Shown here piece after piece: positions 8,748 to 60,244 of a stretch of 64,000 nucleotides of DNA. The notes beneath the pieces are model-generated. The model was not told the origin of the DNA and did not search any database. It saw only the letters and a program-made list of their open reading frames with translations. Every line of letters begins with the position of its first letter. Positions within the stretch are counted from its first letter, which is position 1. The DNA is from a virus: IMG/VR virus record IMGVR_UViG_3300046758_000611, positions 32,001-96,000 of that record, one strand, 5' to 3'. The translations under genes were made by a program, and so were the position numbers.

Positions 8748-8794
8748 GAATATAAATATGATAAAGAAATATATTAAGTATTTTAATTATGAAT

Positions 8795-8851: not shown

Positions 8852-10279
8852 TTAAATCTTATCTGCGTTATTAACAGAGATCTTACCATAGAATTCAGGA
8901 CGTACCATTTTCTTAGCATAACGAGTCATAACCCCACGACGTGGTGTGAAGTTCACTGGATCGTATACCAATGGTGTTTGAATTAATGGGATATATGGAG
9001 CATAAACCGCACCTGTTTCTAAGAAGTTTGCACCTCTGAAACCTACGAGAACGTCACCACTTGTCATGTATGGGTTCTTGTAAACTTGGAAACGATTGTT
9101 CAATGCACCTACCTTGGTAACACCCATTGCGAACTGAGACTGATTTCCGTCTGTATCAGCTGCATATCCTGGGATACTCTCAAGAACGGTAGCAACTTGT
9201 GGAGAACATACGAGGAAGTTTGCACCACCACGAAGAGTCAATTGATGAATTTTGTTACTCATTGATTGAATCTTTGTTCCGAGTTTCTGGAACAATGTTC
9301 CTTGAGTTTCACCACCTTGTAATCCAGCGGTTGCGTCAAATGCAGTTGCATCAACGGTACCAGCATTAACGATAAGCATATCAAGAATTTCCAAGTCAAT
9401 TTCCATTGAAACATACTCGGAAAGAAGTGATGTTAATTCTGCTTCTGCGTCAATACTATGATAAGCATTAAGGTCTTGTGCCAACTCAGGTGTCCACACT
9501 GCTTTTAACTTACGTGTTTTTGCAACGATTGGTTCACTTTTAAGTTCCAAGTTAACTTCAGGGATACCAGCATCTTGTGATCCTGTTACTGCACCTTCGG
9601 TAGCATCGTCAGCTGCTTCAAAGTCACCACGTGTGATGTCTGTTGTTGCGACATGATAATGAAGTGTTCCGTCAGCAGTTGCTTTGTTGTCTCCGTCAAG
9701 AGAAGTTTCTGCTCCACCTCCGTCTACAACTTTAAATGCACGAACACCGTCAAGGTCTGCGTCAGTTGCAACGTCAACTCCAACTTCTTGACCAGTTGTG
9801 ATAGCAACTGTTTGGTCGTTAAGAGAATAACCATGACGACCTGCTCCGTAAAGACCACCTTCTGCTTTGTCAGTTGATTTTGTTGCTCCAGAACCACCAA
9901 ACAAACTACCACTTGCTTGACGTGATTGTGCTGTTCCGTATTTGAAGTCTAAATAGAAAATCAATCCTGATGGAAGATTCATTGGTTGAACCGAAACGAA
10001 TTCCTTCGCAGCGATTTCTGCAAATACACGACGAACGAGAGGAAGTGCTACTCCACTCCATTCTTCTGATCCAGAAGATGTTCCTGTACGTGAACCTTCA
10101 TCAATTAATTGCTTTGCCTGATTTTCAAGAAGAATTGCCATTCCACTTTTTTCTGTATCTGTATCGATACCTTCTAATAAACCAGTCTTTTCCCACTTTG
10201 AAACTAACCCACGGGTTTCTGCCATAAGTTTTTGTTGTGGATTCTGACTGTTTTGTAATAATTTACTAATCTCACTCAT
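8852..10279 (-). CDS. gp23: major capsid protein (T4 gp23-like)
   Basis: 475 aa; KWEKTGLLEG, LPLVRRVF, VQPMNLPSGLIFYLDF, AKTRKLKAVWTPELAQDLNAYH, YAPYIPL, FTPRRGVMTRY. Confidence 0.96.
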   Translation of the reverse strand: MSEISKLLQNSQNPQQKLMAETRGLVSKWEKTGLLEGIDTDTEKSGMAILLENQAKQLIDEGSRTGTSSGSEEWSGVALPLVRRVFAEIAAKEFVSVQPMNLPSGLIFYLDFKYGTAQSRQASGSLFGGSGATKSTDKAEGGLYGAGRHGYSLNDQTVAITTGQEVGVDVATDADLDGVRAFKVVDGGGAETSLDGDNKATADGTLHYHVATTDITRGDFEAADDATEGAVTGSQDAGIPEVNLELKSEPIVAKTRKLKAVWTPELAQDLNAYHSIDAEAELTSLLSEYVSMEIDLEILDMLIVNAGTVDATAFDATAGLQGGETQGTLFQKLGTKIQSMSNKIHQLTLRGGANFLVCSPQVATVLESIPGYAADTDGNQSQFAMGVTKVGALNNRFQVYKNPYMTSGDVLVGFRGANFLETGAVYAPYIPLIQTPLVYDPVNFTPRRGVMTRYAKKMVRPEFYGKISVNNADKI

Positions 10280-12452: not shown

Positions 12453-12473
12453 AATATTTTATATTTTAAGGTT

Positions 12474-13166: not shown

Positions 13167-13608
13167 TGTTATGTTCCTGTGAAATTTCAAAGTATCTATT
13201 TAATATATTACCCATATCCTCGTATAGTCCTTGCATTCGTTGAGTGTATACCTGTCGTTCGGTTGCGGTCTTATGAAATTGTTTTGCAAGTGATTTTAAT
13301 TCTGATAGATTTCTTTTTACACTAACTGCATCAAACCAGTCATCTGTTTCACTTAACATATATTTTGAAGCAGATGAAATGATATTGCACACATCCTCTG
13401 CAATATCTAAATCCTTTATTTCTGTATTGATATGCTTTTGGTAATTTCCAAATTTATTTATTTTCTCACTGGAAATTTGCTTTTCTTCACTTGACATTTT
13501 TTCATCATGAAATAATGACTCAGTTAATATATCTTCAGAAACTTCATATTTTTTAATTTCTTCAGATATAACATCCTCGATAAGTTTTTTCAATTCCGAT
13601 TTTTTCAT
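13159..13608 (-). CDS. conserved head-cluster protein
   Basis: 149 aa; MKKSELKKLIE N-term, DWFDAVSVKRN, YEDMGNILNRYFEI. Confidence 0.75.
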   Translation of the reverse strand: MKKSELKKLIEDVISEEIKKYEVSEDILTESLFHDEKMSSEEKQISSEKINKFGNYQKHINTEIKDLDIAEDVCNIISSASKYMLSETDDWFDAVSVKRNLSELKSLAKQFHKTATERQVYTQRMQGLYEDMGNILNRYFEISQEHNNE

Positions 13609-14237
13609 TTTACAGAGTCTCCCAGTTCTCCTAGTATTTCATGTATAATAGACTCTACATTACAGAACTTAGTACAAACACGACCGGCGGTAATAGTTTT
13701 GTCCACATTCACAGATTCGTTCATCGCAACTGGCTCCAAGAAAGCACCCCGTGTTGAAGGGTTGCTAACGAAATCAAATGCGACCAATTCAAAATCATCG
13801 TTAACCATTGTTTTACCCTCACTCTCACGAGTTGTTCCCATTCCACGTGAACTAATACCAAGAGTGATTCCTGATTTAAATAACTCACGGAGAATATTAC
13901 CAGCAGGTGTGCTTAAAACTTCAACCGTACCAAGCAAGTTGTCGTTTTCCCACCACATCTTTGTTACATTGTGACTTACATTTTGAAGATTTACTACACT
14001 GCTCTCTGGATGATCAAGTTCTCCAAGTGCTCTCTTATCGTCTATAAGTTCTTGATATTTAGTTGCTTCTCGTTCAAGAAGATCACGACTATATATACGA
14101 CCATTTTGATTTTGTTCTTTTGCTTTTTGCAAAATACCCTGTACAACTAGATTACCGTTGTTTTTATCTATACTTTCATTTATTTGAGTTCTGTTGAACT
14201 CAAATGGCATTGTTGATACTAAAACTTGCTTTGTCAT
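13605..14237 (-). CDS. gp21: prohead protease (gp21-like)
   Basis: 210 aa; NQNGRIY, ALGELDHP, VSH, LGISSRGMG, FDFVSNPST. Confidence 0.93.
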   Translation of the reverse strand: MTKQVLVSTMPFEFNRTQINESIDKNNGNLVVQGILQKAKEQNQNGRIYSRDLLEREATKYQELIDDKRALGELDHPESSVVNLQNVSHNVTKMWWENDNLLGTVEVLSTPAGNILRELFKSGITLGISSRGMGTTRESEGKTMVNDDFELVAFDFVSNPSTRGAFLEPVAMNESVNVDKTITAGRVCTKFCNVESIIHEILGELGDSVK

Positions 14238-16177: not shown

Positions 16178-17998
16178 TTAATCTAATTTTACCTGTTTCT
16201 CTAGATTTTCAACAAAATTTTTTGCATCTTGCTCAGTTTCAACTATTAAATGTTGTGGGTTTGAATCTTCTGTATTCTGCTTTCTTGTTAAAAACTGATC
16301 AAGTTTTTCTAAGTCAGATTCTAACTTAAGTGGACTTTCACTTGTCCGTCCAGATACTTTTCGTTCATCTGCACCAAGTGGGTCACGACCCATTGGTTTG
16401 TCATCCGGGTGGTCATACTTGTTGTGTCTATTTTTTCGTTTTTCTTCTTCTCGTTTTCTTTTATGAACATTATCATCATCAGACTCTTCAAAATTAAAAG
16501 AACCTCCACCTTCATCATCACCACCGTCTTCTGTTGAATCATTAGAACTTTGGTCAGCCGGATCTATTCCTTCATTTTGAATGCTTTCCAATCGAAAAAA
16601 TTCTTTAGCATCATCTACAAAATCATTACGAATTCCTTCTACTTCATCTTCTGCAAGACCAAATATTTTATCATATATCCAATCTTTAGAAAACATTTTT
16701 GCATCAACCATATCACGTGCAGTATTTAATTTTTCGGATAGAATTCTAACACGTTCCTCTTCAAAAATAGTAGACGGGTTTGTAAGTGATAAATTAAAAT
16801 CAACAAGTTTACTATCTTTGTATCCCTGTGAATAAAGATGAACTACTGCTATTTTCGTAAGTTCACTTAGTAAAATTCGTTGAACCCGTTCTATTGTTCT
16901 TGCAAATCTTATATCTTCAGCCGCAAGTGTTGCTTTTCCTGTTATTCCTTCTTCATACCCTAGAAATGCTTTTGGTATTTTAAGTGCGGACATCATTTTG
17001 TTTTTTACATACTCAATATCTTCAGTTCCATCATACGTCATTCCTCCTAAACTTTCTATACGAGTACCACTATCACCGCCACGCACAGGTAAGAAAAAGT
17101 CTTCTGTCATATTTTGTAGATTAAACTTTAAATTATAATCACCAGTTTGTTGGTCTACATAAGGAACTTTTTTCATCTTATTAATAACTTTTTGCATAAA
17201 GTTATCAACTTCGTTCGGTGGGATATTACCAATATCAATGTAAAACATTCTTTTTTCAGGTGCTCTCATAATTCTATGAATAAGCATTGCGTCTTCCATT
17301 AGTTGAAGTTGCTTCCACGAACGTCTAGCAGATTCAATCATGCTTTTTCCGTATGGTAAAAAGTTTGTATCACCGAGCAATCTAAAGTGAGCAATTTCAT
17401 AATTTTCGTATGATGCTTTTGCAGAACCTTCCTGTTTAAAGCAAACATATGATGGATTTTCAGGATCCATATCCTCAAGTCGTGTCATTTCATACGTTGA
17501 AATTGGTTTTACGTTTAAAACTCCATACTCAGGTTCAATCTCTAAATGTAAATAAAAATCACCATACTTACACATATTTCGTGTCCATCCCCATAAATTA
17601 AATTCAATATTTAATATCTCGTAAAAAAGATTTTCTAAGATACCCTTTACATTGGAATCTTGACTGGAAATTTTTAAAACTTCACCAAATTCACTTTTAG
17701 TTGTGCATTCATCCGAATATATGTCCAACGCACTTGATAAAATTGGGTCATTATCCATGACATCATAATCATTGAATAACTCTAATCTAGCAGTTTGAAA
17801 TCCTATACTATTGTGCATACTTACATAATCACTATACATTGTATGCATTCTATTGTACTTATCACGAACACTACTCGAATGCTGAATATCATCTGTGTCT
17901 ACAACTTTAAGTTTTTTTCCACCTACATTTCTAACTACTACATCCGAAGAAAATAATCTTTTTAGACCTGCGAATAATTTATTTTTTGGTTTTGCCAT
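16178..17998 (-). CDS. gp20: portal protein (T4 gp20-like)
   Basis: 606 aa; MEDAMLIHRIMRAPEKRMFYIDIGN, EDFFLPVRGG, ALKIPKAFLG, EDIRFARTIER. Confidence 0.95.
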   Translation of the reverse strand: MAKPKNKLFAGLKRLFSSDVVVRNVGGKKLKVVDTDDIQHSSSVRDKYNRMHTMYSDYVSMHNSIGFQTARLELFNDYDVMDNDPILSSALDIYSDECTTKSEFGEVLKISSQDSNVKGILENLFYEILNIEFNLWGWTRNMCKYGDFYLHLEIEPEYGVLNVKPISTYEMTRLEDMDPENPSYVCFKQEGSAKASYENYEIAHFRLLGDTNFLPYGKSMIESARRSWKQLQLMEDAMLIHRIMRAPEKRMFYIDIGNIPPNEVDNFMQKVINKMKKVPYVDQQTGDYNLKFNLQNMTEDFFLPVRGGDSGTRIESLGGMTYDGTEDIEYVKNKMMSALKIPKAFLGYEEGITGKATLAAEDIRFARTIERVQRILLSELTKIAVVHLYSQGYKDSKLVDFNLSLTNPSTIFEEERVRILSEKLNTARDMVDAKMFSKDWIYDKIFGLAEDEVEGIRNDFVDDAKEFFRLESIQNEGIDPADQSSNDSTEDGGDDEGGGSFNFEESDDDNVHKRKREEEKRKNRHNKYDHPDDKPMGRDPLGADERKVSGRTSESPLKLESDLEKLDQFLTRKQNTEDSNPQHLIVETEQDAKNFVENLEKQVKLD

Positions 17999-18050: not shown

Positions 18051-18659
18051 TTATAGATCCAGGTCACTGGCTGCCCCTATAATGTCACCTCCATCAAATC
18101 CTTGAAAAGGACCCAATGGATTTTTTTCTTTTTTAAGTGTATCAATGTTTTTTTCTCCGGAGTACAAAACATATTCGACTTTTTCATCTACAATTAAAAT
18201 TAAAACACTTATTTTCCATCCAGTTGTGTGTACATTTTTTCTAAAATTAAGAACATCGAGTATAACACTTCCTTCTCTTTGATTTTTTAATTTTTCTAAA
18301 TTAATTTCATATGCAAGTCCATCTTCTCTGGCAGCCAGAGTTTTAAGAACTCCTGAAGGTAATTCAATTTTATTAAATAAAGTATATCTAGAAGGACTAT
18401 CAAGTTTAAATTTTTCCATTATATCAAGATATGTTAATTTTTTAACATTTGGAATATTTTCAAGATCAAGTCCAATTTTTACTAAATCAATATATGTTGT
18501 TTTCCCGACTTCAATTTTATTAACTAAATCTTCTACTTCAGCATATGACTTATAGGTTGTTTCTGTGTAAATTTGTTGTGTTGGTAGTAGTGACTGACAT
18601 CCTGTGTTGAATAAAACAGAAAAAAGTATCAGTAATAAAGATGTTTTATTTGCTTTCAT
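18051..18659 (-). CDS. putative lipoprotein
   Basis: Start ATG 18659 with AAAGGA RBS; MKANKTSLLLILFSVLFNTG-C has a basic N-region, hydrophobic core and lipobox-like Cys. Confidence 0.75.
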   Translation of the reverse strand: MKANKTSLLLILFSVLFNTGCQSLLPTQQIYTETTYKSYAEVEDLVNKIEVGKTTYIDLVKIGLDLENIPNVKKLTYLDIMEKFKLDSPSRYTLFNKIELPSGVLKTLAAREDGLAYEINLEKLKNQREGSVILDVLNFRKNVHTTGWKISVLILIVDEKVEYVLYSGEKNIDTLKKEKNPLGPFQGFDGGDIIGAASDLDL

Positions 18660-18673
18660 TTTTGATTTCCTTT

Positions 18674-20263
18674 TTAAAATAACCAATTGATATTTTCTTT
18701 TTGACCATTTACCGTATTCATTTCATATGGATTGTTTGTTAATCCAGATTTACCAAACGGAGTTGAATCTAATTGATTTGAACTTCCCATGTAATCGAAC
18801 AAACTTTTTTGAGTTTGTACATTTTCACTTCTAAATCTCAATGCAGTATCTCTTACCCACAATGACATACACAAACTTAATGTTAAATCATCATTATATC
18901 CTTGCATTGCTTCTGCTCGTTGACCATTCCATACAAATGTAAATAATTCTTCAATCGTTCGTTCTGATTGTATTTCGACCTCTTTTTCACGAACATAACT
19001 TTCCATTTTGGAAATTATTAATGGTCTCGTTTTTATAGAGGTTGTAAATCCAGGAACTTGCTTCTTTTCCATACGATTTATTTTATTAGTATGTTGTGTA
19101 AGTTCATCTATATATTGAAAATCTCGTTGTGTATAATATAAATTACTATAACCTTTATCTATAATTTGTTGTAATACTGCCCACCCTATATTCGCATTTT
19201 CCACTACAAGTAAAGCATTATTAAACTCACTTGCTACTGCCACAAGAAGATTTCCGTAATCTTTTGTTTCTATATCTCCTTTAAATTCTGCGACTTGTTT
19301 TACATTATCTACATCAAATACATGAAATGCACTTTTATCACGACCGTCTCCTCTTGCAACATCGGCAGAAACTACATAGTGTTTATTGTGGTTCGCATAT
19401 TCCCATAACCAATATTCTTTATTAGCACCTCGTTTTTCTATTGGTTCTTTTACTAAATTGTTTTTATACCAATCAAGAATAGAAGCATCTACTACCGAAC
19501 GACCACTGCTTATAAAATCACAATCACACTCTTGGGCTGCGTCCTTTTCTCCAAGAACCTTTGTCTGTAAATCTCTCCACTTTTGATCACGTTCAGGGTG
19601 TAATGACCAGTGCAAATTAATTGGATTGAAATCATTTGATCCGTCCATAGTACCAACCCACGTTTTGTGGAAGAAATTACCAATTCCGTTTGGAGTAGAA
19701 AGTAAAATAGAACGACCACCTGTTGTAATTGTAGATTGCGATGCAGTCCATATTTCTTCCATATTCGTAATGAACGCACACTCGTCCACGATAAGTAAAC
19801 TCAGAGAGGATGAACGGGAAGCATCTACACTACTTGAAGCCGCACGAATATTACTTCCGTTTTTAAAACGCATACTTAATTTATTTTTTTCAGTACACTC
19901 ACTTCGCAACCAACTCGGTAAATGCTCAGACATATGCGTTACTTTTGTAACAATATTCTTTGCAGTTTCTTGGTTAATAGCAATACAAAGAATACTTTTA
20001 TCTGTAAAAAAGGTCATCAACCACAAAGCATAACCCGATACTAAAGTTGATATACCCATTTGCCTTGCTTTTAATACAATATTAAATTGCTCGTCACGAA
20101 AACTCTCTAAAGTTTTTTCTTGAAAATCATACAAATGAAATGGTATTGTACCCATAGTTGGGTGCTGAATTTTACAATACTTTTTCATAAAATATGCAGG
20201 TGACTTTAAACACTCAGCATATTCTTGTTTTATTATTTCTCGTAACGGAATTTTATTACCCAT
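18674..20263 (-). CDS. terL: terminase large subunit (gp17-like)
   Basis: 529 aa; LKARQMGIST Walker A, LLIVDECAF Walker B, LSTPNG, SADVARGDG nuclease motif, NDDL; no intein. Confidence 0.95.
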   Translation of the reverse strand: MGNKIPLREIIKQEYAECLKSPAYFMKKYCKIQHPTMGTIPFHLYDFQEKTLESFRDEQFNIVLKARQMGISTLVSGYALWLMTFFTDKSILCIAINQETAKNIVTKVTHMSEHLPSWLRSECTEKNKLSMRFKNGSNIRAASSSVDASRSSSLSLLIVDECAFITNMEEIWTASQSTITTGGRSILLSTPNGIGNFFHKTWVGTMDGSNDFNPINLHWSLHPERDQKWRDLQTKVLGEKDAAQECDCDFISSGRSVVDASILDWYKNNLVKEPIEKRGANKEYWLWEYANHNKHYVVSADVARGDGRDKSAFHVFDVDNVKQVAEFKGDIETKDYGNLLVAVASEFNNALLVVENANIGWAVLQQIIDKGYSNLYYTQRDFQYIDELTQHTNKINRMEKKQVPGFTTSIKTRPLIISKMESYVREKEVEIQSERTIEELFTFVWNGQRAEAMQGYNDDLTLSLCMSLWVRDTALRFRSENVQTQKSLFDYMGSSNQLDSTPFGKSGLTNNPYEMNTVNGQKENINWLF

Positions 20264-20329
20264 TACAGATAAATATGTATATATTTAATTTTCTTATAAT
20301 ATAAAAGTTTCGACGATACCTTGAAACTT

Positions 20330-20956
20330 TTATAAATCTATATCAGCATACTCTTGAAGGTTATTTTCTACTTCTTTTAAACGAGTTTCTAATTCTTCCA
20401 AGTCGTTTTCAAGTTCTTTCATAATTTCATCTTTGTTTGGAAGATTCCATTGTTCAAGTGAACCATCCTCGTTTAAAAACTTTGGATCATTTGTAATGTG
20501 TTCTTTTGATTCTACTAATTTTGTTTTAGTATCTAATAAAAAACTAAGTTCATTTTCGAGCATAGTCTTTTTTTCATATACTTCGTATTTTCCTTCATCT
20601 TTAAGTTTTTGTTCATATTCTTGAACACAATCAAAGCACATTCCTTTCATCGCAAGCATTCTTTTATCTAAGTATTTTGTGTGATCAACTGTACACATTT
20701 TCTTTGGACAATTGGGTGCTTCTCGTAAACTTTTTCGCACAGTATCCATTAGAGTTTCTGTTCTTACCTTGGAGTTAGTTCCAACTTGCTTCCACTCTTT
20801 TCCATCTTTGTCGGTCCAAATTTCACCTGGCTGTCTTATTACAAGTTCTTCAACTTCTCCTTCGTAACCATGAACTTTAGGAAGTTCTTCTCCTTGAAAC
20901 AACTTACGTGATCGTTTAATCACATACTTAATATCATCTTTATCCATTTTTGCCAT
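20330..20956 (-). CDS. conserved Cys-containing (putative zinc-binding) protein upstream of terminase
   Basis: Likely start ATG 20956 (MAKMDK); GEIWTDKDGKEW, CPKKMC...GMCFDC, C-terminal coiled coil. Confidence 0.7.
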   Translation of the reverse strand: MAKMDKDDIKYVIKRSRKLFQGEELPKVHGYEGEVEELVIRQPGEIWTDKDGKEWKQVGTNSKVRTETLMDTVRKSLREAPNCPKKMCTVDHTKYLDKRMLAMKGMCFDCVQEYEQKLKDEGKYEVYEKKTMLENELSFLLDTKTKLVESKEHITNDPKFLNEDGSLEQWNLPNKDEIMKELENDLEELETRLKEVENNLQEYADIDL

Positions 20957-20963
20957 ATCCAAT

Positions 20964-20992
20964 ATTATCACACTTTTTTTCTAGTTTGTCAA
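20964..20992 (-). promoter_or_regulatory. sigma70-type promoter TTGACA-N17-GATAAT
   Basis: Hexamers at 20987-20992 and 20964-20969 with a 17-nt spacer. Confidence 0.6.
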
Positions 20993-20995
20993 ATA

Positions 20996-21397
20996 TTAAG
21001 ATAATTTTTCAAATGATTTTACGCATTCATCTAAAAAAACGTTTATTAAAAAGTTTAAATACAAATTTCTATATTTATCTCGTTGAGAATCACTTAAATC
21101 ATATTGCATAAATCTTAATTCTTCGGAACAATGTTCTTCTTTTCTCATTCTATCCTGTATACACAGAATGACTTTTTTTACAGAGCAGTGTTCTTCTCCG
21201 TATCCATATAAATATCCACAATGTAATGATAGTTTTAGTCCTTCATCTTGAATAGAAACTACAAACTCTCTATCAAGATACTTAACTGGTTTAGGTAAGA
21301 CTGCACGTTGTGATGTTCTGAATTTGGTACATACCGATGATATTTCTTTTTCAACTTCAATTGATTTTAAATAAATGTTACCATTTAACTTAATCAT
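20996..21397 (-). CDS. hypothetical protein
   Basis: Likely start ATG 21397 (MIKLNG) overlapping upstream stop. Confidence 0.55.
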   Translation of the reverse strand: MIKLNGNIYLKSIEVEKEISSVCTKFRTSQRAVLPKPVKYLDREFVVSIQDEGLKLSLHCGYLYGYGEEHCSVKKVILCIQDRMRKEEHCSEELRFMQYDLSDSQRDKYRNLYLNFLINVFLDECVKSFEKLS

Positions 21398-22448
21398 ACT
21401 TTCCTTTTTTAAAGTCTTTTCTATCATATGACTTTTTACTTTTCATTGGTCTACTTTTAGGCATTGTTTGTTTTCTTACCTTATTATAGGCATCAAGTTT
21501 TGTTAATAGTTTTTTTTGTTTTGCTTCCGACAATTTTTTTATTTTATGCACTAGCATTTTAATATATTCTTTTTTGCTACCACGACCTTTGAAATAAGGA
21601 CTTTTGTCACTCAGCATTTTTGCAACATCAAGTATTGCTTTTAAATCTTTTAAATTTTCTTGCTCTTCCTTTCCTTCGTTGGTAGGAACTTTATTTGGTA
21701 AATCATCATGATCAGTTTTTGCCATTTTTTTTGCATCCTTTTTTGTCATGCCATTTGCTATTTTTTTTATTTTTGTATATAAATCAGTATCCACATCAGT
21801 CTTCTTTAAATCTCCTTTGTTGTAAGCATGAACCATTCCAAATAATCTTTGTTGTGATTTCGATACTGATTTTTCTGTTATAGGTCCATCTAATTTCGTA
21901 AACTCAACATAATATATATTTGTTTTGGGAGATTGAAAGATTTTTCCACCTACGTTCTTTTTGTGCTGAATTGCTTCTTTTTTGCTTTTGAAAGAAAAAG
22001 GTTTTAGTTTTCCATTAATATATTGTGCAGATACTTCTAATTTAGAACCATTTACACCGAGTGTAAAAACTCCGTGCTTATTTTCATTTACTGCATTTTT
22101 ATTATTAATTTTACTTCTTACTTTTTTAATTCTTTCTTTTTCTTTTTGTTTTACTTTAGGCAATAACTTTCTTGAAATTTTGTTAATCACAGCTGTTTTT
22201 GTTGCAAGTTTTTTATCTATAAATTCTTTTTGACTAAGAGATAATTCTTGATACTTTTTTCCTCCTGCCAATTTTTTTACTAATATATTTTTTGCGGCCT
22301 TATCTGCTACCTTTTTTAGTTTCGCAGGGGACTTCATTCTTTTTGCAAGTAGTTTTCTTTTAATTGCACGTTTTTTTGCAGTTCTTTTTGCTGATCTTGC
22401 AAGTTTAATTCGTGCAGCCCTTGATAATTTTTTTTCGTTTGTTTTCAC
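21390..22448 (-). CDS. highly basic modular protein, probable head-internal DNA-binding polyprotein (DUF3008-like module)
   Basis: 352 aa, GTG start; K/R-rich N-term; internal KSVSKSQQRLFGMVHA...KKIA..MTKKDAKKMAKT.H..LP.KV module; modules separated by x-x-E junctions. Confidence 0.7.
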   Translation of the reverse strand: MKTNEKKLSRAARIKLARSAKRTAKKRAIKRKLLAKRMKSPAKLKKVADKAAKNILVKKLAGGKKYQELSLSQKEFIDKKLATKTAVINKISRKLLPKVKQKEKERIKKVRSKINNKNAVNENKHGVFTLGVNGSKLEVSAQYINGKLKPFSFKSKKEAIQHKKNVGGKIFQSPKTNIYYVEFTKLDGPITEKSVSKSQQRLFGMVHAYNKGDLKKTDVDTDLYTKIKKIANGMTKKDAKKMAKTDHDDLPNKVPTNEGKEEQENLKDLKAILDVAKMLSDKSPYFKGRGSKKEYIKMLVHKIKKLSEAKQKKLLTKLDAYNKVRKQTMPKSRPMKSKKSYDRKDFKKGKYD

Positions 22449-22449
22449 T

Positions 22450-24978
22450 TTAAAATCTCATTATACCCATAATTTGATTTATAGGAGCAAATGTTCCGGT
22501 TAGTTTATATGTTCCACCTTTATATTGAAATACAACACCTTCTGTTGGTGCGATTGCGTTGCTTCCACCAATAGAATTAAGACGATTGAGATTTTTATTT
22601 AACTTCTCCATGTCTTTCTTAAACTTATCAGGTGATTCAACAGAACCAATCTTTTTTGATTCTAATGTTTTAACATGAACATCAAGTGCCTTTGCTATAT
22701 CATCACTTCCTCCGGCCGCAACGAATCCTTTTACATTCTTTAATACTTCCGCACCCAATTTCAAAAAGATGAATTGAAATGGCCACATATTTTCTTCAAA
22801 TTGTTTTGTAACATCTTCTTTTTCAAACTTAGTAACCCACGCAAGTAACTTTGGATGATCAGATAATTCTTTTTTAATTGTAGTAATTTTATTGGACTTA
22901 TCGTTATATGCCCAACGACCGATGAGTGCCTCGTATACTTTTGATGGAAATATCTCTTTAGTTTTTGTTTGTTGCTTATTTAATAAATCTCTCCACCAAG
23001 AATCATGATACTTCATTACTTTGTCGTTGTCTTTTAATCTAAATTTATTTTTAAGTTTATCTATTTTAGCAGAATACTTTGTATAAGAATCTCCGAATGT
23101 TTTGCTTTTAGGAAGTTCCACAACAATTGGTGCGTTCAGTGAATAACGACTTTGAACATCTGCGTTTATTTGTTTAAGCATACCTTTAAGCATTCTTGCA
23201 GAGTCTTTAAGTTCACTTGTTATATCGTTTCCCTCGGAATCTACACTAACTGCTTTTCCTGCGGAATCATATGCTTGTGTTCCGTGAAATACCAACATAT
23301 CTACATTTTGAGGAATAACATTTTGTGTTGCGGGTGTCATTACCTCTATATTCATAAAACGTTCACCTTCACGAAATACTTTATTCTTTTGTGCATCAGT
23401 AAGACCCGATATAGCAGTTTCCAAATCTTCAACTGCACTTACAAACGCATCACGAATATTATCAGGACGATCAGCAAATATACTAGAAAATTCTTTTACA
23501 TTAGGTGCGGCTGCTCCTGCATTTTTTAAATGTCCTTGATTTCTTGCAGCCACCAATTCACCATCTTTCCAAGAAAACATTAAATTTTGACCATCAAGTT
23601 TTTCAGTAACTTCTTTTTCAACATTTAGTTCACCTGCCAACGACCTACGAATCATTTCTTTTAAATCGGCAAATGTTAAATCACGATCATCGAAAGGATG
23701 ACTCATATGACCAGCCGCACCTCCTTCTGTGATTATTTTGCTTTCCTTTATAGCATGACCTTCAACTCCTTTATCAATTTCTTCACTACCACTTGCTTCT
23801 TTGCTAGATGAATCAATTGTATTTTTATCAACAAGGTCTTCATCTCCTTGTTCGTTGTTCTTACGAATGGATTTTTCAGAACCAACAAAGTCTACAAGTT
23901 TGTATCCTACAGTTTCGGCAACATTTTCAATGAAGTTAACCCATTGATCGTGGGCATTTGAAGTTTCTTCTGTATTAATTTGATTTGTAGGTGATCCTAC
24001 ATCAAAATCACCAGAAGGATAAAAAGATACCGCAGGAACTGGACCAGAGTATTTTCCCCACTCACGATAATCTGCGTTACGACCTAATCCGTTTTTTCCA
24101 ACCACAAAGTCAAGCACATCATAACCAAGTTGCTTTGCACGGTTTGATGTGTAACTTTCATAAGACTCACCTGGATAATAAACAGAAGGTCCATCATCAA
24201 CCATTGATTTTCCCATTGAAGATATTGAACTTATTTCGTTTATTATACTTGGAAATTTTTCAATAAGTTTTTCAAACTTTGGATATTCATTTAAAAAGTT
24301 TTCAAAAATTTCTTCGTTTTCAAATAATGTTCCGAACTTCTTAGTAAGATACTTAAATATTTTTTCATCATACCAACCGAAGAGCTCTTCAAATGCTTGA
24401 ATCTTTGTCATTTCATCGTGTTCAGGACTACCCAATAAATCACGAATCCGAGTACCACTTACTTCTTTTCCCAAGACCTTGATACTTACATGAGGAGCAA
24501 CAATAAAATAACCATGTTCACCGTATGGTTTTAGATCATTTTTATTTTTCTCATATGATTGATAGTATGCAGGTGATCCATCTGCTTTAGTTGTTTTGAG
24601 ACGACCTGCATCTTTTTCTCCAAAAATATAAACCACCGCAGTTGTATTCGGATTATACTTTTTTAAAATCTCTTCGCATACATACGGATTTTTTACTTTA
24701 ACTACATTCTTAACTCCATGCTTCGTCCATACCAGTTTCTTTTCTTTAAAATTCAAAGGACTTTTTGTGGCATCGGTTTTATTACTCGTAGCAACATATG
24801 CTTTATCAAACTTACCATCTAACCACTTGTATGTTTTGTAATGATGCACACCTGCCGGTTGAAATCTACCAGGATAAATTCCAATTACCTTTTTTATTTT
24901 AGGTGATTCATTCAACAACTCTTCAACCATAAAGTCGGTTAAGTCATTTGCAAGTGAGTTAGTGTTTTTGTAATTCAT
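22450..24978 (-). CDS. fusion: cytidylyltransferase-like (HIGH-class) domain plus ATP-dependent ligase-like nucleotidyltransferase domain
   Basis: 842 aa; IGIYPGRFQPAGVHH, GEKDAGRL, VSGTRIR; then GGAAGHMSHPFDD, EKLDGQN (KxDG), AARN, NIEVM, LVFHG, EGVVF, YKLTG. Confidence 0.75.
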   Translation of the reverse strand: MNYKNTNSLANDLTDFMVEELLNESPKIKKVIGIYPGRFQPAGVHHYKTYKWLDGKFDKAYVATSNKTDATKSPLNFKEKKLVWTKHGVKNVVKVKNPYVCEEILKKYNPNTTAVVYIFGEKDAGRLKTTKADGSPAYYQSYEKNKNDLKPYGEHGYFIVAPHVSIKVLGKEVSGTRIRDLLGSPEHDEMTKIQAFEELFGWYDEKIFKYLTKKFGTLFENEEIFENFLNEYPKFEKLIEKFPSIINEISSISSMGKSMVDDGPSVYYPGESYESYTSNRAKQLGYDVLDFVVGKNGLGRNADYREWGKYSGPVPAVSFYPSGDFDVGSPTNQINTEETSNAHDQWVNFIENVAETVGYKLVDFVGSEKSIRKNNEQGDEDLVDKNTIDSSSKEASGSEEIDKGVEGHAIKESKIITEGGAAGHMSHPFDDRDLTFADLKEMIRRSLAGELNVEKEVTEKLDGQNLMFSWKDGELVAARNQGHLKNAGAAAPNVKEFSSIFADRPDNIRDAFVSAVEDLETAISGLTDAQKNKVFREGERFMNIEVMTPATQNVIPQNVDMLVFHGTQAYDSAGKAVSVDSEGNDITSELKDSARMLKGMLKQINADVQSRYSLNAPIVVELPKSKTFGDSYTKYSAKIDKLKNKFRLKDNDKVMKYHDSWWRDLLNKQQTKTKEIFPSKVYEALIGRWAYNDKSNKITTIKKELSDHPKLLAWVTKFEKEDVTKQFEENMWPFQFIFLKLGAEVLKNVKGFVAAGGSDDIAKALDVHVKTLESKKIGSVESPDKFKKDMEKLNKNLNRLNSIGGSNAIAPTEGVVFQYKGGTYKLTGTFAPINQIMGIMRF

Positions 24979-25508
24979 TTAGTTTCAAGAATTTCTGCTA
25001 AGATAGTTCTTATTTGGTTTCTAAGTTTTTGCTCGTATACTTTTCGTGAAATGAAACGATTAAATTCACCCTTTGACATTCCAGTAAGTTCATCTGCCAT
25101 TTCATCAAATCCCTTTCTTTGTAAAAACGCAACAACTTTATCTTTTGCTTTTAAAATACTTGTATGTAATCCTGACATAAAATCAATTGCCTTTTTGTAC
25201 TCAGGACTTGTTAATTTAATTTCATTTGTTTTTTTCATTTTATTTGATTCCTCGTATTGTGACATATAAAAGTCTTCATCAGATGCAGCTGCCTGAAAAT
25301 CTCTCCAAGCTTGTTCTGCTTCTTTTCCCACCATTATTACTTTTCCTTTTGGATAATAAAGTATTTCATCTCCTTTTTTAAATTTAATGCCACCCTTGCG
25401 AAGTCTTCGTTGTACAGGTAGTCTTTGTTCACCAGATACTCCATCATATTTTGATTTCATCCAAAATGGATCGTCTTTATATCTTTTATATTCTGATATG
25501 TTTTTCAT
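24975..25508 (-). CDS. hypothetical protein
   Basis: 177 aa; YKDDPFWM...KKGDEILYYPKGK; C-term EQKLRNQIRTILAEILE. Confidence 0.65.
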   Translation of the reverse strand: MKNISEYKRYKDDPFWMKSKYDGVSGEQRLPVQRRLRKGGIKFKKGDEILYYPKGKVIMVGKEAEQAWRDFQAAASDEDFYMSQYEESNKMKKTNEIKLTSPEYKKAIDFMSGLHTSILKAKDKVVAFLQRKGFDEMADELTGMSKGEFNRFISRKVYEQKLRNQIRTILAEILETK

Positions 25509-25511
25509 AAG

Positions 25512-25838
25512 TTATCCTTCTATATAATCTATGGGTTTGTTTGTTTTAATGTTTTTCTTACAGGCCTCTTTTTTTTCAAAATACATATATGGAGAATTTT
25601 TGATATACCACTCTGTACAATGATAGACGGTTCCACTTAAGATAGGTCCTTCCGTACTCATTGATTCTGTAAACGAACCTATAAATTCATATTTGTGTTT
25701 TTCTTTTAAAAAACGGTTTGCCATATTTTTTGACCAAGATTCATTTCCTTCTTTTTTTGTTTCAAAACTATATTTCTCACCCGACTTTGCGAGTTCAAGT
25801 TTATATGATTCACCTAAACTTTCGGATACTAAATTCAT
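25512..25838 (-). CDS. hypothetical protein
   Basis: 108 aa, translationally coupled to upstream kinase. Confidence 0.55.
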   Translation of the reverse strand: MNLVSESLGESYKLELAKSGEKYSFETKKEGNESWSKNMANRFLKEKHKYEFIGSFTESMSTEGPILSGTVYHCTEWYIKNSPYMYFEKKEACKKNIKTNKPIDYIEG

Positions 25839-26869
25839 TAATCAAACTTCTCCGATTTAATTTTCATGTAAAATCTAGTAAATTCGTCACTATCTAGTTC
25901 TAAACTTTCAACTAATCTTGATAATACTGCCAAATTCCGTTGAGGTGATAGATTAAACTTTTCTATTATATAAATTGTACGACTCAAATATCGTTCAAGG
26001 TCTGCTGGTAAAATTGCTTTATCAATTTCATTTAATAGTTGTTCAGTAACACGATTTCTTTTATCACCACTTTTGCTCATTTTATCGTATGCCATCATCA
26101 TTTTGATCCATTTCTTTCCAATTGGATTTTTAATTGGTTTTGAAATAAATTTTGCTACCTCTTTCATAAGTCGTGGAACTAAATCTAATCTACCAGGTTT
26201 TGTTTTACTACGAGTATCTTCTGAATTGTCTACTATAACAAAGTTTGCTTTGAACAAACCTTGAAACTTACCAAGATTTTTTTGGACATCTGTCCAAATA
26301 TCCTTTACTATTTTTCGTGGAAGTTTTCTTTTACGCATTGCGTTTCTTTGTTGTGCGACATCAAGTGTTGTGTTTACAAACACCATATAACAATCGTATC
26401 CTAGTTTTTCAAGTTCTTTTTTTTGCTTTGATATTTTGTTATAGTTGTCACCTGTCCCATCAACAATAATACCCAAACGACCATCTTTAAATAACTCAAA
26501 TTGTTTAAGCATTATTTTCTTCGCACGGGAACGAATACTATTTGGATCATCACTTGTTACTTTGGCAAATGTTTCATCATCCATTTTAGATAAATTCAGA
26601 TCATATCCTGCCTTTTTAAGTAATATTTCAAATGCAGGATCACTGTTTACAATCTTTAAACCACTTGGTGATAAATTTTTTGCATCCGGTGGAAAATTGA
26701 ATAATGTATCAACAGTAGCAGATTTACCAGAACCAGGTCCTCCTGCTAAAAATACTGCTTTTAAAATACCAGGATCATATACACCCTCTACAAGTGTAAA
26801 GTATCCTTTACGCAATCCTGCTTTAATCAGGGTTTCTTGGACTTTTTGATTTTCTTCGGATTTTTCCAT
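25838..26869 (-). CDS. P-loop kinase (AAA_33 / zeta-toxin / PNK-like)
   Basis: 343 aa; AVFLAGGPGSGKS Walker A, VNSD, IIVDGTG, MVFVNTTLDVAQQRN..R.R lid, VIVDN. Confidence 0.85.
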   Translation of the reverse strand: MEKSEENQKVQETLIKAGLRKGYFTLVEGVYDPGILKAVFLAGGPGSGKSATVDTLFNFPPDAKNLSPSGLKIVNSDPAFEILLKKAGYDLNLSKMDDETFAKVTSDDPNSIRSRAKKIMLKQFELFKDGRLGIIVDGTGDNYNKISKQKKELEKLGYDCYMVFVNTTLDVAQQRNAMRKRKLPRKIVKDIWTDVQKNLGKFQGLFKANFVIVDNSEDTRSKTKPGRLDLVPRLMKEVAKFISKPIKNPIGKKWIKMMMAYDKMSKSGDKRNRVTEQLLNEIDKAILPADLERYLSRTIYIIEKFNLSPQRNLAVLSRLVESLELDSDEFTRFYMKIKSEKFD

Positions 26870-26912
26870 AAATACAATTCAGGTACATAATAAATATATA
26901 TCTAAATATGTT

Positions 26913-29513
26913 TTATGCTCCGTATTTTATCTTACTAAATGAACCTTCTTTTTGAATTTCTACAATTTCATCCACCATATCTCGCATAACATCCAAATGG
27001 CTAATGACTACGATGAACTCAAATTGCCCCTTTAAATAGGTAAATAGATTAAATACACTACTGATGTTATCTCCGTCTAATGTACCCCACCCTTCATCAA
27101 TAACAAGGAAATTAGAACGAGGAAGACTGCTTACATTGATAAGTGCCACACGCATAGCAATACTGCTTATGAATCGTTCCATGCCACTACACATCTCTAA
27201 AGGCCAATGACGATCTTCATAAGTAATCTTTGAGTAAATGTGTTTTCCGTCCATTTCAAGATTCATGCCGAAATCAACGATTTGAGAAAGAATATTATTA
27301 ACCTCACTTTCAATACTAGGAATAGTTTTAGAAATAAGTTCATATGAAATACCATCTCGTTTTACTGCATCAAGATATAGTTCATATCCTCGTTTTTTTC
27401 TTTCATAACTTTTTGCCTCTTCGATAGATGAAAGAACATCTTCGTGTTCTTTTTCAACAATCTTAACTTCACCAAAAAGAGTTTGAAGTTTTTCTGTTTC
27501 TTCATTTGCTATTAAATTCACTTTTGTAAGTTTATTTTGTATATCAGCAACTTCAACTTGTAAAGATTTATTAAATTCAATAATATCTTTACATTCATAA
27601 TATTCGTTGATACTTTTTTCATTTAATAGAATATCCTTTTCAAGTGATTCTATCATACTTGACAATGCAAGAATCTTGGCATCTGTTTGATTTATTTCAT
27701 AAGAAAGTTGTGTATTTTCTGATTTTAAATTATTATACAATTCATAATCACTATCAACATTTTTATATATTTCAAGTTGTTGTTCAAATTCATTTTTTCT
27801 CTTAACAAGTTCATCTGCATCTGCTTTATCTTTATCAAGTTCTTTTTTAGTAATTTCCGCACTTTCTATCAAATTTTTTGAATTAGTAACACAATGCTTA
27901 CAATTAGGATCGTATTCATGACTATCATAATGTTTCAATTTATCAAGTTTAGCATTAACTGATGTTCTTAATACTGCCAAATCTTTATCGACTAAATTTA
28001 TATTTTCACGAATTTTTAAGACATCTACATATTTTTCTTCTATACCGTCAAGTTCAGATATTTTTTTGAATTTTAGTGATTTATCGTTTGATAACTTCTT
28101 CTTTTTATCAGACTCAAGTGAACGATTATCTTTTGCCACATCAAGTCTTTCTTTTAAGTTTGTTTTATTAAATTCTAATTTATCTATATCTACGGATGCT
28201 TCCTCAAATGAGCAATTTTTAAATTGTGCATTTTTGTCTGCCAATTCTTTATTTAGTTTTTTCTGTTTTAATAAAGCAATATTAGTTCTACTATCCTGTT
28301 CATTGTATTGATGTTTAACATCTTCTAATTTTTCTTGAACATTGTTTAATGTTTCATCAAAATCTTCACGATTAAATCTTTTTAAAAGTGCGTTTATTTC
28401 TTTTATATCTTCCGATGCAGTTGTATGTAACTGATCGAACATATCTATTCCCATAAACTGAGCAAGTAAATCTTTTCTCTCACTTTGACTTTTATCTATA
28501 AAAATTGCATTATTATTTTGCAAACTAAGTGTAGTCAAAACAAAATCATCATATGACCCGACATGATCACGTATTACTGCATTGGTTCCTGCTCTTTGTT
28601 CTCCGTTTAGTGAAATTGTTTGACCTTCTTCATCATGTTTCCAGAAATCAACAACAACCGTTACATCTCCGTTCTTTTTAGTAGTTGCAGTTCTTTCTAT
28701 AAAATAATTTACTCCACTTATTTCAAAATTAAGTTTACAGTAAAAATTATCAGTTTGTGTATTCAATACGTGTGCGGCCTTGAATGCACGATCACATTTA
28801 TCAAATAAACAAAAACTCAAAGCACTCATCACACTACTTTTACCACTTGCATTTGAGGCAAATAATCCCATAACACTTTTCATGTTTGAAAAGTCTATTA
28901 TGTTTCCATCTCCGTAACTAAACATATTACCGAATTCAAACTTCTTTGGTTTCCAAATACAATTTCTTAAAACTTCTTTTACTACCAACTTTTCATTTAT
29001 TTCTTTGTTGATATCAAGAGCAGTTTTTACTTGCTCATCATCAACAACAAAATTCCTGCGAAGATAATCTTCTATTAAATCATTTTGAACTTGTATTGTA
29101 GTAATGTCACCGAAATCAAATTTATTATCACGATCATATTTTTTTGCCTCGGAAATTGCATCACAACGAGTTACATTCAAATCACTTATATTTGTTTTCT
29201 TTCGTATATCTGCTATAATTTCTTTAGTTTCAGTTGCAGTAGTATTATATACCTTTACACGAAGTCTTGCTTTTCTTGGTAATAAACTAAGATCACTAAT
29301 ACACTTTCCATCACGAACTACAATTGTATAATATCCATAATCATTGTGAACTTCGTGGTGCGTATGTGTTTGATTATTTAAGTCCCACAAAACATATCCA
29401 TGACCATTTGGTTTTTCACCGTGATTTTGTTGAATCATACTACCAGAATAAACAACAATTGGTTTATTCTTATTGTGTCTTTTTACTTTTATATATGTTT
29501 CTTTATCTTCCAT
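26913..29513 (-). CDS. sbcC: SbcC/Rad50 (gp46-like) ATPase carrying at its N-terminus the C-terminal part of the SbcD/Mre11 nuclease
   Basis: Likely start ATG 29513 (MEDKET); PIVVYSGSMIQQNHGE...GYVLWD (Mre11 C-part); NASGKSS Walker A, LSLQNN Q-loop, CKHC zinc hook, CSGMERF signature, LVIDEG Walker B, ISH. Confidence 0.9.
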   Translation of the reverse strand: MEDKETYIKVKRHNKNKPIVVYSGSMIQQNHGEKPNGHGYVLWDLNNQTHTHHEVHNDYGYYTIVVRDGKCISDLSLLPRKARLRVKVYNTTATETKEIIADIRKKTNISDLNVTRCDAISEAKKYDRDNKFDFGDITTIQVQNDLIEDYLRRNFVVDDEQVKTALDINKEINEKLVVKEVLRNCIWKPKKFEFGNMFSYGDGNIIDFSNMKSVMGLFASNASGKSSVMSALSFCLFDKCDRAFKAAHVLNTQTDNFYCKLNFEISGVNYFIERTATTKKNGDVTVVVDFWKHDEEGQTISLNGEQRAGTNAVIRDHVGSYDDFVLTTLSLQNNNAIFIDKSQSERKDLLAQFMGIDMFDQLHTTASEDIKEINALLKRFNREDFDETLNNVQEKLEDVKHQYNEQDSRTNIALLKQKKLNKELADKNAQFKNCSFEEASVDIDKLEFNKTNLKERLDVAKDNRSLESDKKKKLSNDKSLKFKKISELDGIEEKYVDVLKIRENINLVDKDLAVLRTSVNAKLDKLKHYDSHEYDPNCKHCVTNSKNLIESAEITKKELDKDKADADELVKRKNEFEQQLEIYKNVDSDYELYNNLKSENTQLSYEINQTDAKILALSSMIESLEKDILLNEKSINEYYECKDIIEFNKSLQVEVADIQNKLTKVNLIANEETEKLQTLFGEVKIVEKEHEDVLSSIEEAKSYERKKRGYELYLDAVKRDGISYELISKTIPSIESEVNNILSQIVDFGMNLEMDGKHIYSKITYEDRHWPLEMCSGMERFISSIAMRVALINVSSLPRSNFLVIDEGWGTLDGDNISSVFNLFTYLKGQFEFIVVISHLDVMRDMVDEIVEIQKEGSFSKIKYGA

Positions 29514-37675: not shown

Positions 37676-37705
37676 AAATATAAGTATATATTTACAACAA
37701 ATTAT

Positions 37706-60214: not shown

Positions 60215-60244
60215 TATATATAAATATAAATGTATATATTTTTT

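Follow-up and report, generated by a model that had tools for sequence, protein, structure and literature searches.

A candidate cassette of capsid-packaged kinase, nucleotidyltransferase and ligase-fold enzymes beside the head genes of a T4-like myophage

We analyzed a 64,000-nucleotide (nt) stretch of viral DNA (the window; positions 32,001 to 96,000 of IMG/VR record IMGVR_UViG_3300046758_000611), part of the 170-kb, 84%-complete genome of a marine T4-like myophage of uncultured origin with a G+C content of about 31%. Nearly all genes of the window lie on the minus strand, as do the cassette, its domains and the head genes whose coordinates are given below. The cassette encodes a 343-amino-acid (aa) kinase, open reading frames (ORFs) of 108 and 177 aa, an 842-aa protein, a lysine-rich protein of 352 aa and a 143-aa ORF; five of its ORFs occupy positions 21390-26869, where they lie back to back or share 1-4 bases with the next. 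The 842-aa protein joins a HIGH-class nucleotidyltransferase (NTase) to a ligase-fold domain. T4 gp21 cleaves after the triplet (L/I)-x-E, and polynucleotide kinase and RNA ligase repair tRNAs cut by host anticodon nucleases. An earlier note, made from the sequence of this DNA, had proposed that the enzymes of the cassette are loaded into the head, matured by the protease and injected as an anti-defence kit for RNA repair or nucleotide modification. The combined statement that these are packaged, protease-trimmed enzymes of RNA-end repair comes, in our judgement, slightly short of an even chance, with virion data taken from relatives only.

The kinase gene (25838..26869) encodes a P-loop kinase precursor. 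Its leader, residues 1-28 (26786..26869), ends in TLVE(28)|G and is followed by GVYDPG..GGPGSGKS, with the Walker A motif at residues 43-50. A hydrophobic-x-Glu-Gly (h-x-E-G) sequence precedes GVYDPG in every kinase homologue shown from a set of 120, and leaders as short as 8-9 residues keep it, as in MKLKDIINE|G and the HTVC008M protein (MIPFILKE|G). The catalytic domain spans residues 29-257 (26099..26785), and 20 aligned sequences share as invariant residues Walker A G43-K49, D77, R113, D137-G-T-G, and R175, N176, R179 and R181 of the RNxxRxR lid. With Walker A, the catalytic Asp and the Arg-rich lid all in place, the protein is, on its motifs, a P-loop kinase of the PNK/AAA_33/Zeta class, and 5'-kinase activity on RNA or DNA is predicted for it. 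Profile scans matched it to Zeta_toxin (E 2.4e-11; 43.9 bits, cut-off 22.3), AAA_33 (E 9.7e-6), phrog_12810 (E 8.5e-40) and phrog_505, annotated as 'polynucleotide kinase' (E 8.5e-5), as well as to TIGR03574 at E 5.5e-4, far below the cut-off of that model; the kinase alone gave no match below E 0.1 to the sequences of the PDB. The C-terminal module, residues 274-338 (25856..26050), is 32% identical (E 2e-10) to an 82-aa protein of phage locus L062, whose gene directly follows the prohead protease gene; the match is placed in the same way in L064, L074 and L082.

The gene for the 842-aa protein (22450..24978) encodes a leader, an NTase resembling NMN adenylyltransferase (NMNAT), a middle module, a linker and the ligase-fold domain. 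The leader, residues 1-24 (24907..24978), contains a predicted helix at 6-22 and ends in LLNE(24)|S, from where the chain continues as SPKIKK..PGRFQP (PGRFQP at residues 36-41); residues 21-24 have a predicted local distance difference test (pLDDT) value below 50 in the whole-protein model. The NTase domain, residues 25-230 (24289..24906), carries the motifs GRFQPAGVHH and VSGTRIR, with G37, F39, P41, H46 and R179 near-invariant. Its Pfam score of 17.7 lies below the gathering cut-off of 21 bits, and relatives score above it. A search of the PDB sequences with the family profile returned NadD (2h29, E 1.8e-5), PPAT (3l92, E 3.7e-5) and NMNAT (1f9a, E 5.4e-5), while the 842-aa sequence itself produced chance-level rows only. 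Foldseek placed the domain model closest to NadM (2r5w, E 3.5e-4) and NadD (6kh2, E 4.1e-4), with a probability of 1.00 to NadM, NadD and PPAT. Fold and both motifs thus make the modelled domain a member of the HIGH (cytidylyltransferase-like) superfamily, for which a specificity for NMN or nicotinic acid mononucleotide (NaMN) is predicted from the ranking of the matches only, NadM and NadD coming ahead of PPAT.

The middle 'DDGP' module, residues 245-375 (23854..24246), is conserved in relatives and poorly modelled (pLDDT <50 over 238-277 and 293-343), and an Atlas search gave no usable match for it. In one relative (P0316), a kinase is followed by this module and then by LTE|G and the start of a second kinase. 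An acidic low-complexity linker, residues 376-418 (23725..23853), leads to the ligase-fold domain. It ends in IKE..ITE|G, which provides two h-x-E triplets 6 residues apart, and lies in a 60-residue disordered stretch (365-424, pLDDT <50). Both triplet sites of the 842-aa protein therefore fall in segments with a pLDDT below 50, one after the leader helix and the other inside the disordered linker.

The ligase-fold domain, a predicted covalent nucleotidyltransferase, covers residues 419-842 (22453..23724) and starts at IITE(418)|GGAAGH..EKLDG, with EKLDG at residues 459-463. The predicted AMP-accepting Lys460 (codon 23599..23601) belongs to motif I (KxDG), which is invariant as K46/D48/G49 in alignment A1 (32 sequences) and as K460/D462/G463 in alignment A2 (26 sequences). 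Further conserved residues of A1 lie on predicted strands, namely the invariant E131 (FMNIEV), H151 (LVFHG) and G400 with the near-invariant E399 (EGVVF), and the near-invariant K411 (YKLTG); the names of motifs III, IIIa, IV and V were given by order and position, without residue-level superposition. The AlphaFold model of the domain has a pLDDT of 89.7 and a predicted template modelling score (pTM) of 0.87, and its best Foldseek rows are Trl1 and T4 Rnl1. All 50 rows listed by a VIA search seeded with Foldseek are ligases or capping enzymes. In an unseeded VIA-align comparison with 48,161 chains the top 14 are all ligases, including NgrRnl (5cot, Z 8.3), Rnl2 (7.6), Trl1 (7.5), REL1 (7.3) and Rnl1 (7.2); the NgrRnl alignment covers 178-182 residues at Z 8.3-8.4 with a root mean square deviation of 4.0-4.1. 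A helical module of about 180 residues sits between motifs IIIa and IV and splits the core, which keeps the Z values moderate. The earlier note had named a C-terminal domain lacking the ligase fold as grounds for dropping its proposal, and the model has that fold; its kinase and HIGH-class NTase assignments likewise hold by profile, motif and fold.

The sequence of the domain matched no RNA-ligase family in Pfam, PHROG or NCBIfam, and its profile retrieved chance-level rows only from the PDB sequences. The chain ends with a single helix about 17 residues past motif V, where an oligonucleotide-binding (OB)-fold domain is absent. The C-terminal helical domain that follows motif V in the Rnl1/Trl1 family is absent too, as is sequence membership of that family, and what is shared is likeness of fold (Z 7.2-7.8). 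Because of the helical insert and the missing OB domain, we file the modelled domain at the level of the superfamily: it is a covalent nucleotidyltransferase, nearer in shape to RNA ligases and outside every described RNA-ligase family. It constitutes a new family and a candidate RNA ligase, for which the formation of enzyme-AMP and strand sealing are predicted from the model. Residues 239-318 of the model (approximately 22783-23022) weakly match helical nucleic-acid-binding modules, such as RecQ HRDC (Z 4.8).

A further module belongs to the 352-aa lysine-rich mosaic protein (21390..22448; DUF3008, E 6e-5; phrog_30268, E 8.9e-10). Its DUF3008 module, residues 193-254 (21687..21872), begins right after ITE(192) and resembles residues 3-56 of a protein of 198 aa (48% identity, E 1e-14) that L062 encodes between portal and protease. 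Since the match begins at residue 3, the free-standing DUF3008 protein starts where the triplet ends.

The triplet by itself is common. The window contains 278 [LI]xE triplets in 19,964 residues of 46 ORFs, or 1.39 per 100 aa where composition predicts 1.21. The cassette proteins show no excess (4 in 343, 9 in 842 and 2 in 352 residues), so that a single occurrence is uninformative. Its position is a different matter. Among internal domain copies from representatives of at most 50% mutual identity, [LIVM]xE runs right up to the first residue of the ligase domain in 101 of 137; the other offsets hold 0-12, save a second peak of 36 five residues upstream. Before the NTase, it ends 10-14 residues ahead of G[RK]FQP in 24 of 30 internal copies, and a wider count finds it 5-16 residues ahead in 110 of 129 occurrences. 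The CCA-adding module found in relatives has the triplet 6-8 residues in front in 6/6 copies, and where a CCA module opens a protein, its start coincides with the end of the triplet in internal copies; the kinase has it 14 residues before the P-loop in 3/3. The positional conservation of the triplet before four unrelated folds exceeds chance in the sequences compared, and the triplet also precedes DUF3008. The observation of the earlier note that each catalytic domain follows such a triplet, with the strings it quoted all present in the translations, is therefore borne out and extends to distant relatives.

The phage encodes an enzyme of the type that would cut at these sites. A T4 gp21-family prohead protease gene (13605..14237; Peptidase_S77, E 9.4e-28, 97.5 bits, cut-off 27; phrog_207, E 1.4e-54), which the earlier note had presupposed, lies downstream of the cassette. 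The gp23-type major capsid protein (8852..10279; Gp23, E 3.7e-85) has LLE(36)|G in its N-terminal part, a putative maturation site if T4 gp23 is a guide. Between the portal gene and the capsid gene, ORFs reach 3-4 times the average (L/I)xE density of the window, with 21 triplets in the 446 residues of the ORF at 10332-11672, and fit scaffold or prohead-core proteins that the protease would cut up. The triplet-rich ORFs are those at 10332-11672, 11868-13608 and 14779-16099.

The cassette sits upstream of the terminase and portal genes, as the earlier note had stated: the gene for the terminase large subunit (TerL; 18674..20263; Terminase_6N, E 5.8e-11; phrog_2, E 1.3e-45) is found downstream of the 352-aa gene with three ORFs in between, and the T4-type portal gene (16178..17998; Portal_T4, E 6e-70) lies beyond it, separated by one further ORF (18051-18686). 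This placement recurs in relatives. TerL is downstream of the ligase gene, on the same strand, in 77 of 80 related viral loci, the other 3 of which end too early, and loci that are long enough also show portal and protease downstream of it. All four cultured phages that carry homologues have an S77 protease gene. A scan of 185,579 species genomes for homologues outside phages with an S77 protease identified none: its 13 loci all lie on contigs of metagenome-assembled genomes (MAGs), 7 have TerL downstream and 5 of these also the portal, and 2 of the 5 MAG bins screened for an S77 protease contain one. In other phages, the C-terminal module of the kinase and the DUF3008 module are free-standing small genes that flank the prohead protease.

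The cassette also shares an upstream motif with the structural genes. A copy of the promoter-like motif ATATTTAT (gene strand) at 26890..26897 heads the cassette 21 nt before the kinase ATG, in agreement with the earlier note. This 8-mer occurs 29 times in the window against 12.5 expected, a number reached in 0/100 shuffles. On the gene strand, 17 of 19 copies fall between genes, mostly a short way ahead of minus-strand genes, among them those for tube, sheath, protease and TerL. The ORFs of the cassette abut or overlap, and a single copy of ATATTTAT precedes them; we take them to be transcribed together, as one late-type unit that opens the block of packaging and head genes. At 2490-2497, 8752-8759, 20269-20276, 37674-37681 and 60220-60227, the motif ends 0-6 nt before a start codon, which leaves no space for a Shine-Dalgarno sequence or a normal 5' leader; these sites may reflect leaderless mRNAs, a translation signal instead of a promoter, or miscalled starts.

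Proteomic data on virions are available for several relatives. The Agrobacterium phage Atu_ph07 protein AUZ94865, 40% identical to the kinase, corresponds to gp53 (87 kDa), a mapping confirmed by four computed masses. Table S5 of Attai et al. 2018 (PMC6102473) lists gp53 in virions with 31 unique peptides and 45.5% coverage in gel bands 2-13, with a peak in band 9; among the table entries compared, its peptide count is equalled only by that of the tail sheath gp132 (31), and the capsid protein has 10. According to the same table, proteins that peak in band 9 are mostly of 17.8-24.3 kDa, with two at 29.0 and 44.8 kDa, and other proteins of 76-94 kDa mostly peak in bands 1-3, while gp44 (86 kDa) peaks in band 10 and gp108 (98 kDa) in band 13. 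Cleaved at VTE|G and LTE|L, gp53 would yield a kinase fragment with a computed mass of 23.0 kDa. Among cyanophages, the cytidylyltransferase T4-GC190 is reported in purified S-SM1 virions in the text and Table S8 of Sullivan et al. 2010 (PMC3037559), a cytidylyltransferase (ORF154) was found in CsCl-purified S-CREM2 virions, and NMNAT-like proteins are listed for virions of S-CBWM1, S-SZBM1 and S-SCSM1 (PMC10665884). In the RsoM2USA paper, which identified proteins for ten bands only, the kinase homologue ORF254 is absent and the neighbouring ORF257 is present. A literature search found no paper on Mel-JY01, a cultured Microcystis phage with an NTase-ligase protein in which the triplet site reads IIAE|GG. 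Cultured carriers of the kinase include the Pelagibacter phage HTVC008M and the Methylophilales phage Melnitz.

Searches of HTVC008M, Atu_ph07, RsoM2USA and S-PM2 with profiles from A1 and A2 did not detect the ligase domain. The S-PM2 proteins p141 and p142 have KWDG and EGFVAIVDGKAVKIV motifs ahead of an NTase; the match of p141 to the ligase family is not significant (E 0.55), and the BFVD model of a single 591-aa S-PM2 protein matches the ligase-domain model weakly (E 1.4e-3). The S-PM2 proteins are probably the same domain pair in reverse order. In the RefSeq entry (L109:7026-8805), KWDG lies in p141 and the EG..K.K motif in the first half of p142, followed by the NTase, annotated as two genes; the 591-aa BFVD protein suggests a split or mis-called gene.

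The architectures of relatives bear on function. The ligase domain is represented by 1,783 clusters at E <=0.001 and occurs on more than 560 viral contigs. It is C-terminal in chains of 414-1,930 residues in most of 150 listed, with exceptions seen in P0227, P0247, P0253, P0260 and P0262. Thirty-five long representatives contain a HIGH NTase (CTP_transf_like) in 23 cases, DUF5661 in 8, a Zeta/AAA_33 kinase in 5, the head of a CCA-adding enzyme (PolyA_pol) in 5, HD in 4 and an intein in 1, while 6 have nothing recognisable. P0240 combines NTase, DUF5661, kinase, HD, CCA-adding domain and ligase in one chain, and in P0117 and P0118 the kinase of the window (51% identity) is joined to the NTase-ligase protein (40% identity) in one polypeptide. 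The intein lies inside the chain of P0197. In relatives, kinase, HD phosphoesterase, CCA-adding and ligase modules occur fused, the set of parts expected for the repair of tRNA ends. We therefore regard RNA-end repair, chiefly of tRNA, as the likeliest function; we give it an even chance, the chemistry being predicted. The RNA-repair role suggested by the earlier note gains from the fusions in relatives and has NAD+ supply as its main functional rival.

In the mechanism that we propose, the enzymes would be made as precursors, each module being preceded by (L/I/V)-x-E at the end of a short N-terminal leader or of a flexible linker. The precursors would enter the prohead core, as the T4 internal proteins and Alt do via a capsid-targeting sequence, a gp21-type protease would trim or separate them after Glu, and the enzymes would leave the capsid with the DNA at infection. 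The kinase would then make a 5'-phosphate and the ligase seal via Lys460-AMP, so that broken RNA ends, above all those of tRNA, are healed; the NMNAT-like domain may offset a loss of NAD+ or renew it for use as a cofactor. We put somewhat better than even odds on virion association and trimming of the kinase and the NTase-ligase protein, and parts of the cassette are probably shipped inside the capsid, as measured for relatives only. More tentative, and in our view doubtful, is the wider picture of an enlarged, modular T4 capsid-targeting system, in which shuffled enzyme polyproteins with protease sites at their joints are loaded, cut and injected with the DNA, providing a tRNA-repair and NAD+-regenerating kit before phage expression. 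A bolder sub-reading would have the ligase use NAD+ made in cis by the fused NMNAT domain.

Several observations weigh against packaged RNA repair. The virion data come from relatives, none of them close to the 842-aa protein; cleavage and ejection are predicted, and a cargo role here is deduced from sequence. The NTase of cyanophages is related only distantly (hhalign probability 70%, E 3.9e-5), and the S-PM2 NTase and the HTVC008M kinase homologue sit among replication genes, after UvsX and gp41, rather than beside the terminase. T4-GC190 was not detected in S-PM2 virions according to the published account (PMC3037559). Matches of the kinase to tRNA and polynucleotide kinase profiles are weak (PSTK, E 0.02; Clostridium thermocellum Pnk kinase, E 0.1), and it could be a small-molecule kinase that partners the NMNAT-like domain, as in NadR. 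The window has no recognisable 2',3'-cyclic phosphodiesterase or 3'-phosphatase for the healing of 3' ends, and the 84%-complete genome has no match to a CCA-adding enzyme.

One alternative, which we hold to be rather unlikely, is that the proteins are cytoplasmic late enzymes that are not packaged, the h-x-E triplet a structural N-cap or linker habit, and the detection in virions of relatives carry-over of abundant soluble proteins. At the ligase junction, the P1 residue is Glu in 110 of 145 representatives and has become Cys in 17 and Met in 13 (30/145), while P3 is kept as Leu or Ile in 138, so that the motif there may be partly structural; of the 36 internal ligase copies that lack the triplet, only 11 have another within 15 residues. 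Nor do the cassette proteins share the triplet enrichment of the head-core ORFs. The Atu_ph07 particles were purified with polyethylene glycol (PEG) only, and the table of that study includes replication and other intracellular proteins (RecA-like, SSB, ribonucleotide reductase and terminase proteins), the replication proteins at 1-4 peptides each (PMC6102473); the S-CREM2 cytidylyltransferase was identified from 3 peptides, and the authors themselves raise possible carry-over (PMC10665884). The cassette moreover adjoins SbcC, SbcD, primase and RuvC, and related genes are similarly placed in S-PM2 and HTVC008M. A structural habit specific to one fold is nevertheless insufficient, because the same triplet stands at a fixed offset before four unrelated folds and DUF3008. 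As for carry-over, gp53 equals the tail sheath in peptides and has its peak at roughly one fourth of the size of the full chain; evident contaminants in that table have 1-4 peptides (PMC6102473), and two modules of the cassette are common to genes that flank the prohead protease.

The other alternatives concern chemistry. The kinase might phosphorylate nicotinamide riboside, like the kinase half of NadR, and the HIGH domain make NAD+ from NMN, with the ligase-fold domain using that NAD+ or the pair restoring NAD+ drained by host NADase defences; such a role, compatible with packaging, strikes us as improbable. The NTase is closest to NMN and NaMN adenylyltransferases, kinase-NTase fusions exist in that order, phage pairs of HIGH NTase and P-loop kinase are described as NAD+ salvage in a published account of such systems (PMC7824862), and cyanophage reports read virion NMNAT-like proteins in the same way (PMC10665884). 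The region around KLDG (23479-23673) is in addition the only match of the genome to PF01653, the adenylation domain of NAD+-dependent ligases (E 8.7e-4, 15.4 bits); this match is below the cut-off of 27 and covers the motif I region only. The kinase, however, matches Zeta_toxin/AAA_33, PSTK and Pnk, with no ribosylnicotinamide kinase family among the matches listed, and the fusions to CCA-adding and HD domains point to tRNA ends. No nicotinamide phosphoribosyltransferase turned up, though no search was aimed at one.

Far less probable still is a phage DNA ligase with a DNA 5'-kinase, serving replication, recombination or the sealing of nicks in DNA that is packaged or entering the cell. No match to the ATP-dependent DNA ligases (PF01068) was found in the 84%-complete genome, whose sole PF01653 match is this domain; the SbcCD, primase and RuvC genes are adjacent; and the DNA ligases of African swine fever virus, T4 and Chlorella virus are among the fold matches (Z 5-7.3). 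However, the chain stops about 17 residues after motif V and so lacks an OB domain, a requirement of DNA ligases and capping enzymes; the RNA ligases NgrRnl, Rnl2, Trl1, REL1 and Rnl1 head the fold matches, and relatives fuse the domain to tRNA enzymes. Another ligase may also lie in the missing part of the genome.

The ideas on which packaged RNA repair builds are known, namely T4 capsid targeting, packaged polyvalent effectors and phage RNA repair, the last of which is an established notion in the literature (PMC7824862); the cargo variant and the ligase-fold family are new. In T4, the internal proteins IPI-III and Alt are targeted by capsid-targeting sequences, processed by gp21 and ejected, and Alt sets a precedent for enzyme cargo, as summarized in PMC9026906. 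The phage described here has the same T4-type head module with an S77 protease and putative targeting leaders of 8-28 residues that end in hydrophobic-x-Glu. Its putative cargo would differ in consisting of nucleic-acid or nucleotide enzymes instead of an ADP-ribosyltransferase or small basic proteins, and its motif also joins modules inside polyproteins. With T4 PNKP and Rnl1/2, bacterial Pnkp/Hen1 and Trl1, the cassette shares a P-loop kinase and a lysine-AMP ligase fold (Z 7.2-7.8 for T4 Rnl1, 7.6 for Rnl2 and 7.5 for Trl1), to which relatives add CCA-adding and HD healing modules. It departs from these systems in that its ligase-fold domain has no sequence match to RNA ligase families, the window has no phosphatase or cyclic phosphodiesterase domain, the accessory region is a helical insert of about 180 residues between motifs IIIa and IV and not an N- or C-terminal domain, and an NMNAT-like domain is added. 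T4 PNKP and the T4 RNA ligases are not known to be virion proteins.

The NTase has the HIGH fold, the GRFQP..H and SGTxIR motifs and its best structural matches in common with NadM and NadR (NadM of Francisella tularensis and Synechocystis, NadD of Escherichia coli), and a P-loop kinase partner in common with NadR and the phage NAD+ salvage proteins of PMC7824862; here, the partner is a ligase-fold domain in place of Nudix, the kinase is of the Zeta/AAA_33 type and the NTase falls below the Pfam cut-off. The virion NTases of cyanophages, T4-GC190 among them, are likewise HIGH NTases of marine T4-like phages in purified particles. They differ in their distance (NTase hhalign probability 70%, nothing significant for the ligase part), reversed domain order and location in a replication module, and the passages on them in the cyanophage papers describe no ligase domain or cut motif. 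Polyvalent proteins and head-packaged effectors (Iyer, Aravind and colleagues; see also PMC9503650) are variable multi-domain enzyme chains encoded next to terminase and portal and argued to be packaged and injected, which resembles the present arrangement. Pfam scans of the window and relatives revealed no MuF or portal fusion, and the protease motif at the joints implies separation into single enzymes, unlike polyvalent proteins.

If the cassette is indeed packaged, capsid cargo would grow from a few T4 proteins to a widespread modular delivery of enzymes in some of the ocean's most abundant phages, and pre-loaded RNA repair would join the phage counter-defences against tRNA-cutting and NAD+-depleting abortive-infection systems. 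It would also give reason to revisit virion proteomes in which Atu_ph07 gp53 and the cyanophage 'cytidylyltransferases' are on record yet unexplained. Apart from packaging, the ligase-fold domain with its helical insert is an undescribed family without a Pfam model. Our literature search found no paper describing the cassette, which does not prove that none exists, and the 84%-complete genome contains no paralogues of its modules.

The 108-aa ORF (25512..25838) and the 177-aa ORF (24975..25508) gave no family match above threshold in Pfam, PHROG and NCBIfam scans; both are co-linear in the 8 closest loci. In relative P0311, the kinase is fused to the 108-aa ORF. The 213-aa ORF (20330..20971), directly upstream of TerL, likewise matched no family in these databases. 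Most of the 80 related loci have a homologue of it separating TerL from the gene with the ligase domain, and this position is the sole basis for regarding it as a candidate small terminase subunit.

In the direction of transcription, PHROG and Pfam scans give an order of baseplate genes, a 3,511-aa ORF, RuvC, primase, SbcD, SbcC and the cassette, followed downstream by the 213-aa ORF, TerL, portal, S77 prohead protease, gp23-type capsid protein, sheath and tube. SbcC (26913-29522, minus strand) adjoins the cassette upstream, and the single 3,511-aa ORF, at 40793-51328, lies between the baseplate and replication genes. The source labels the record a 'provirus', and its appearance is that of a lytic T4-like phage. 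Outside the window, at record positions 125284-126049, the genome carries a cluster of eight tRNA genes on one strand, for Ala, Ser (two), Glu, Asn, Pro, Thr and Cys.

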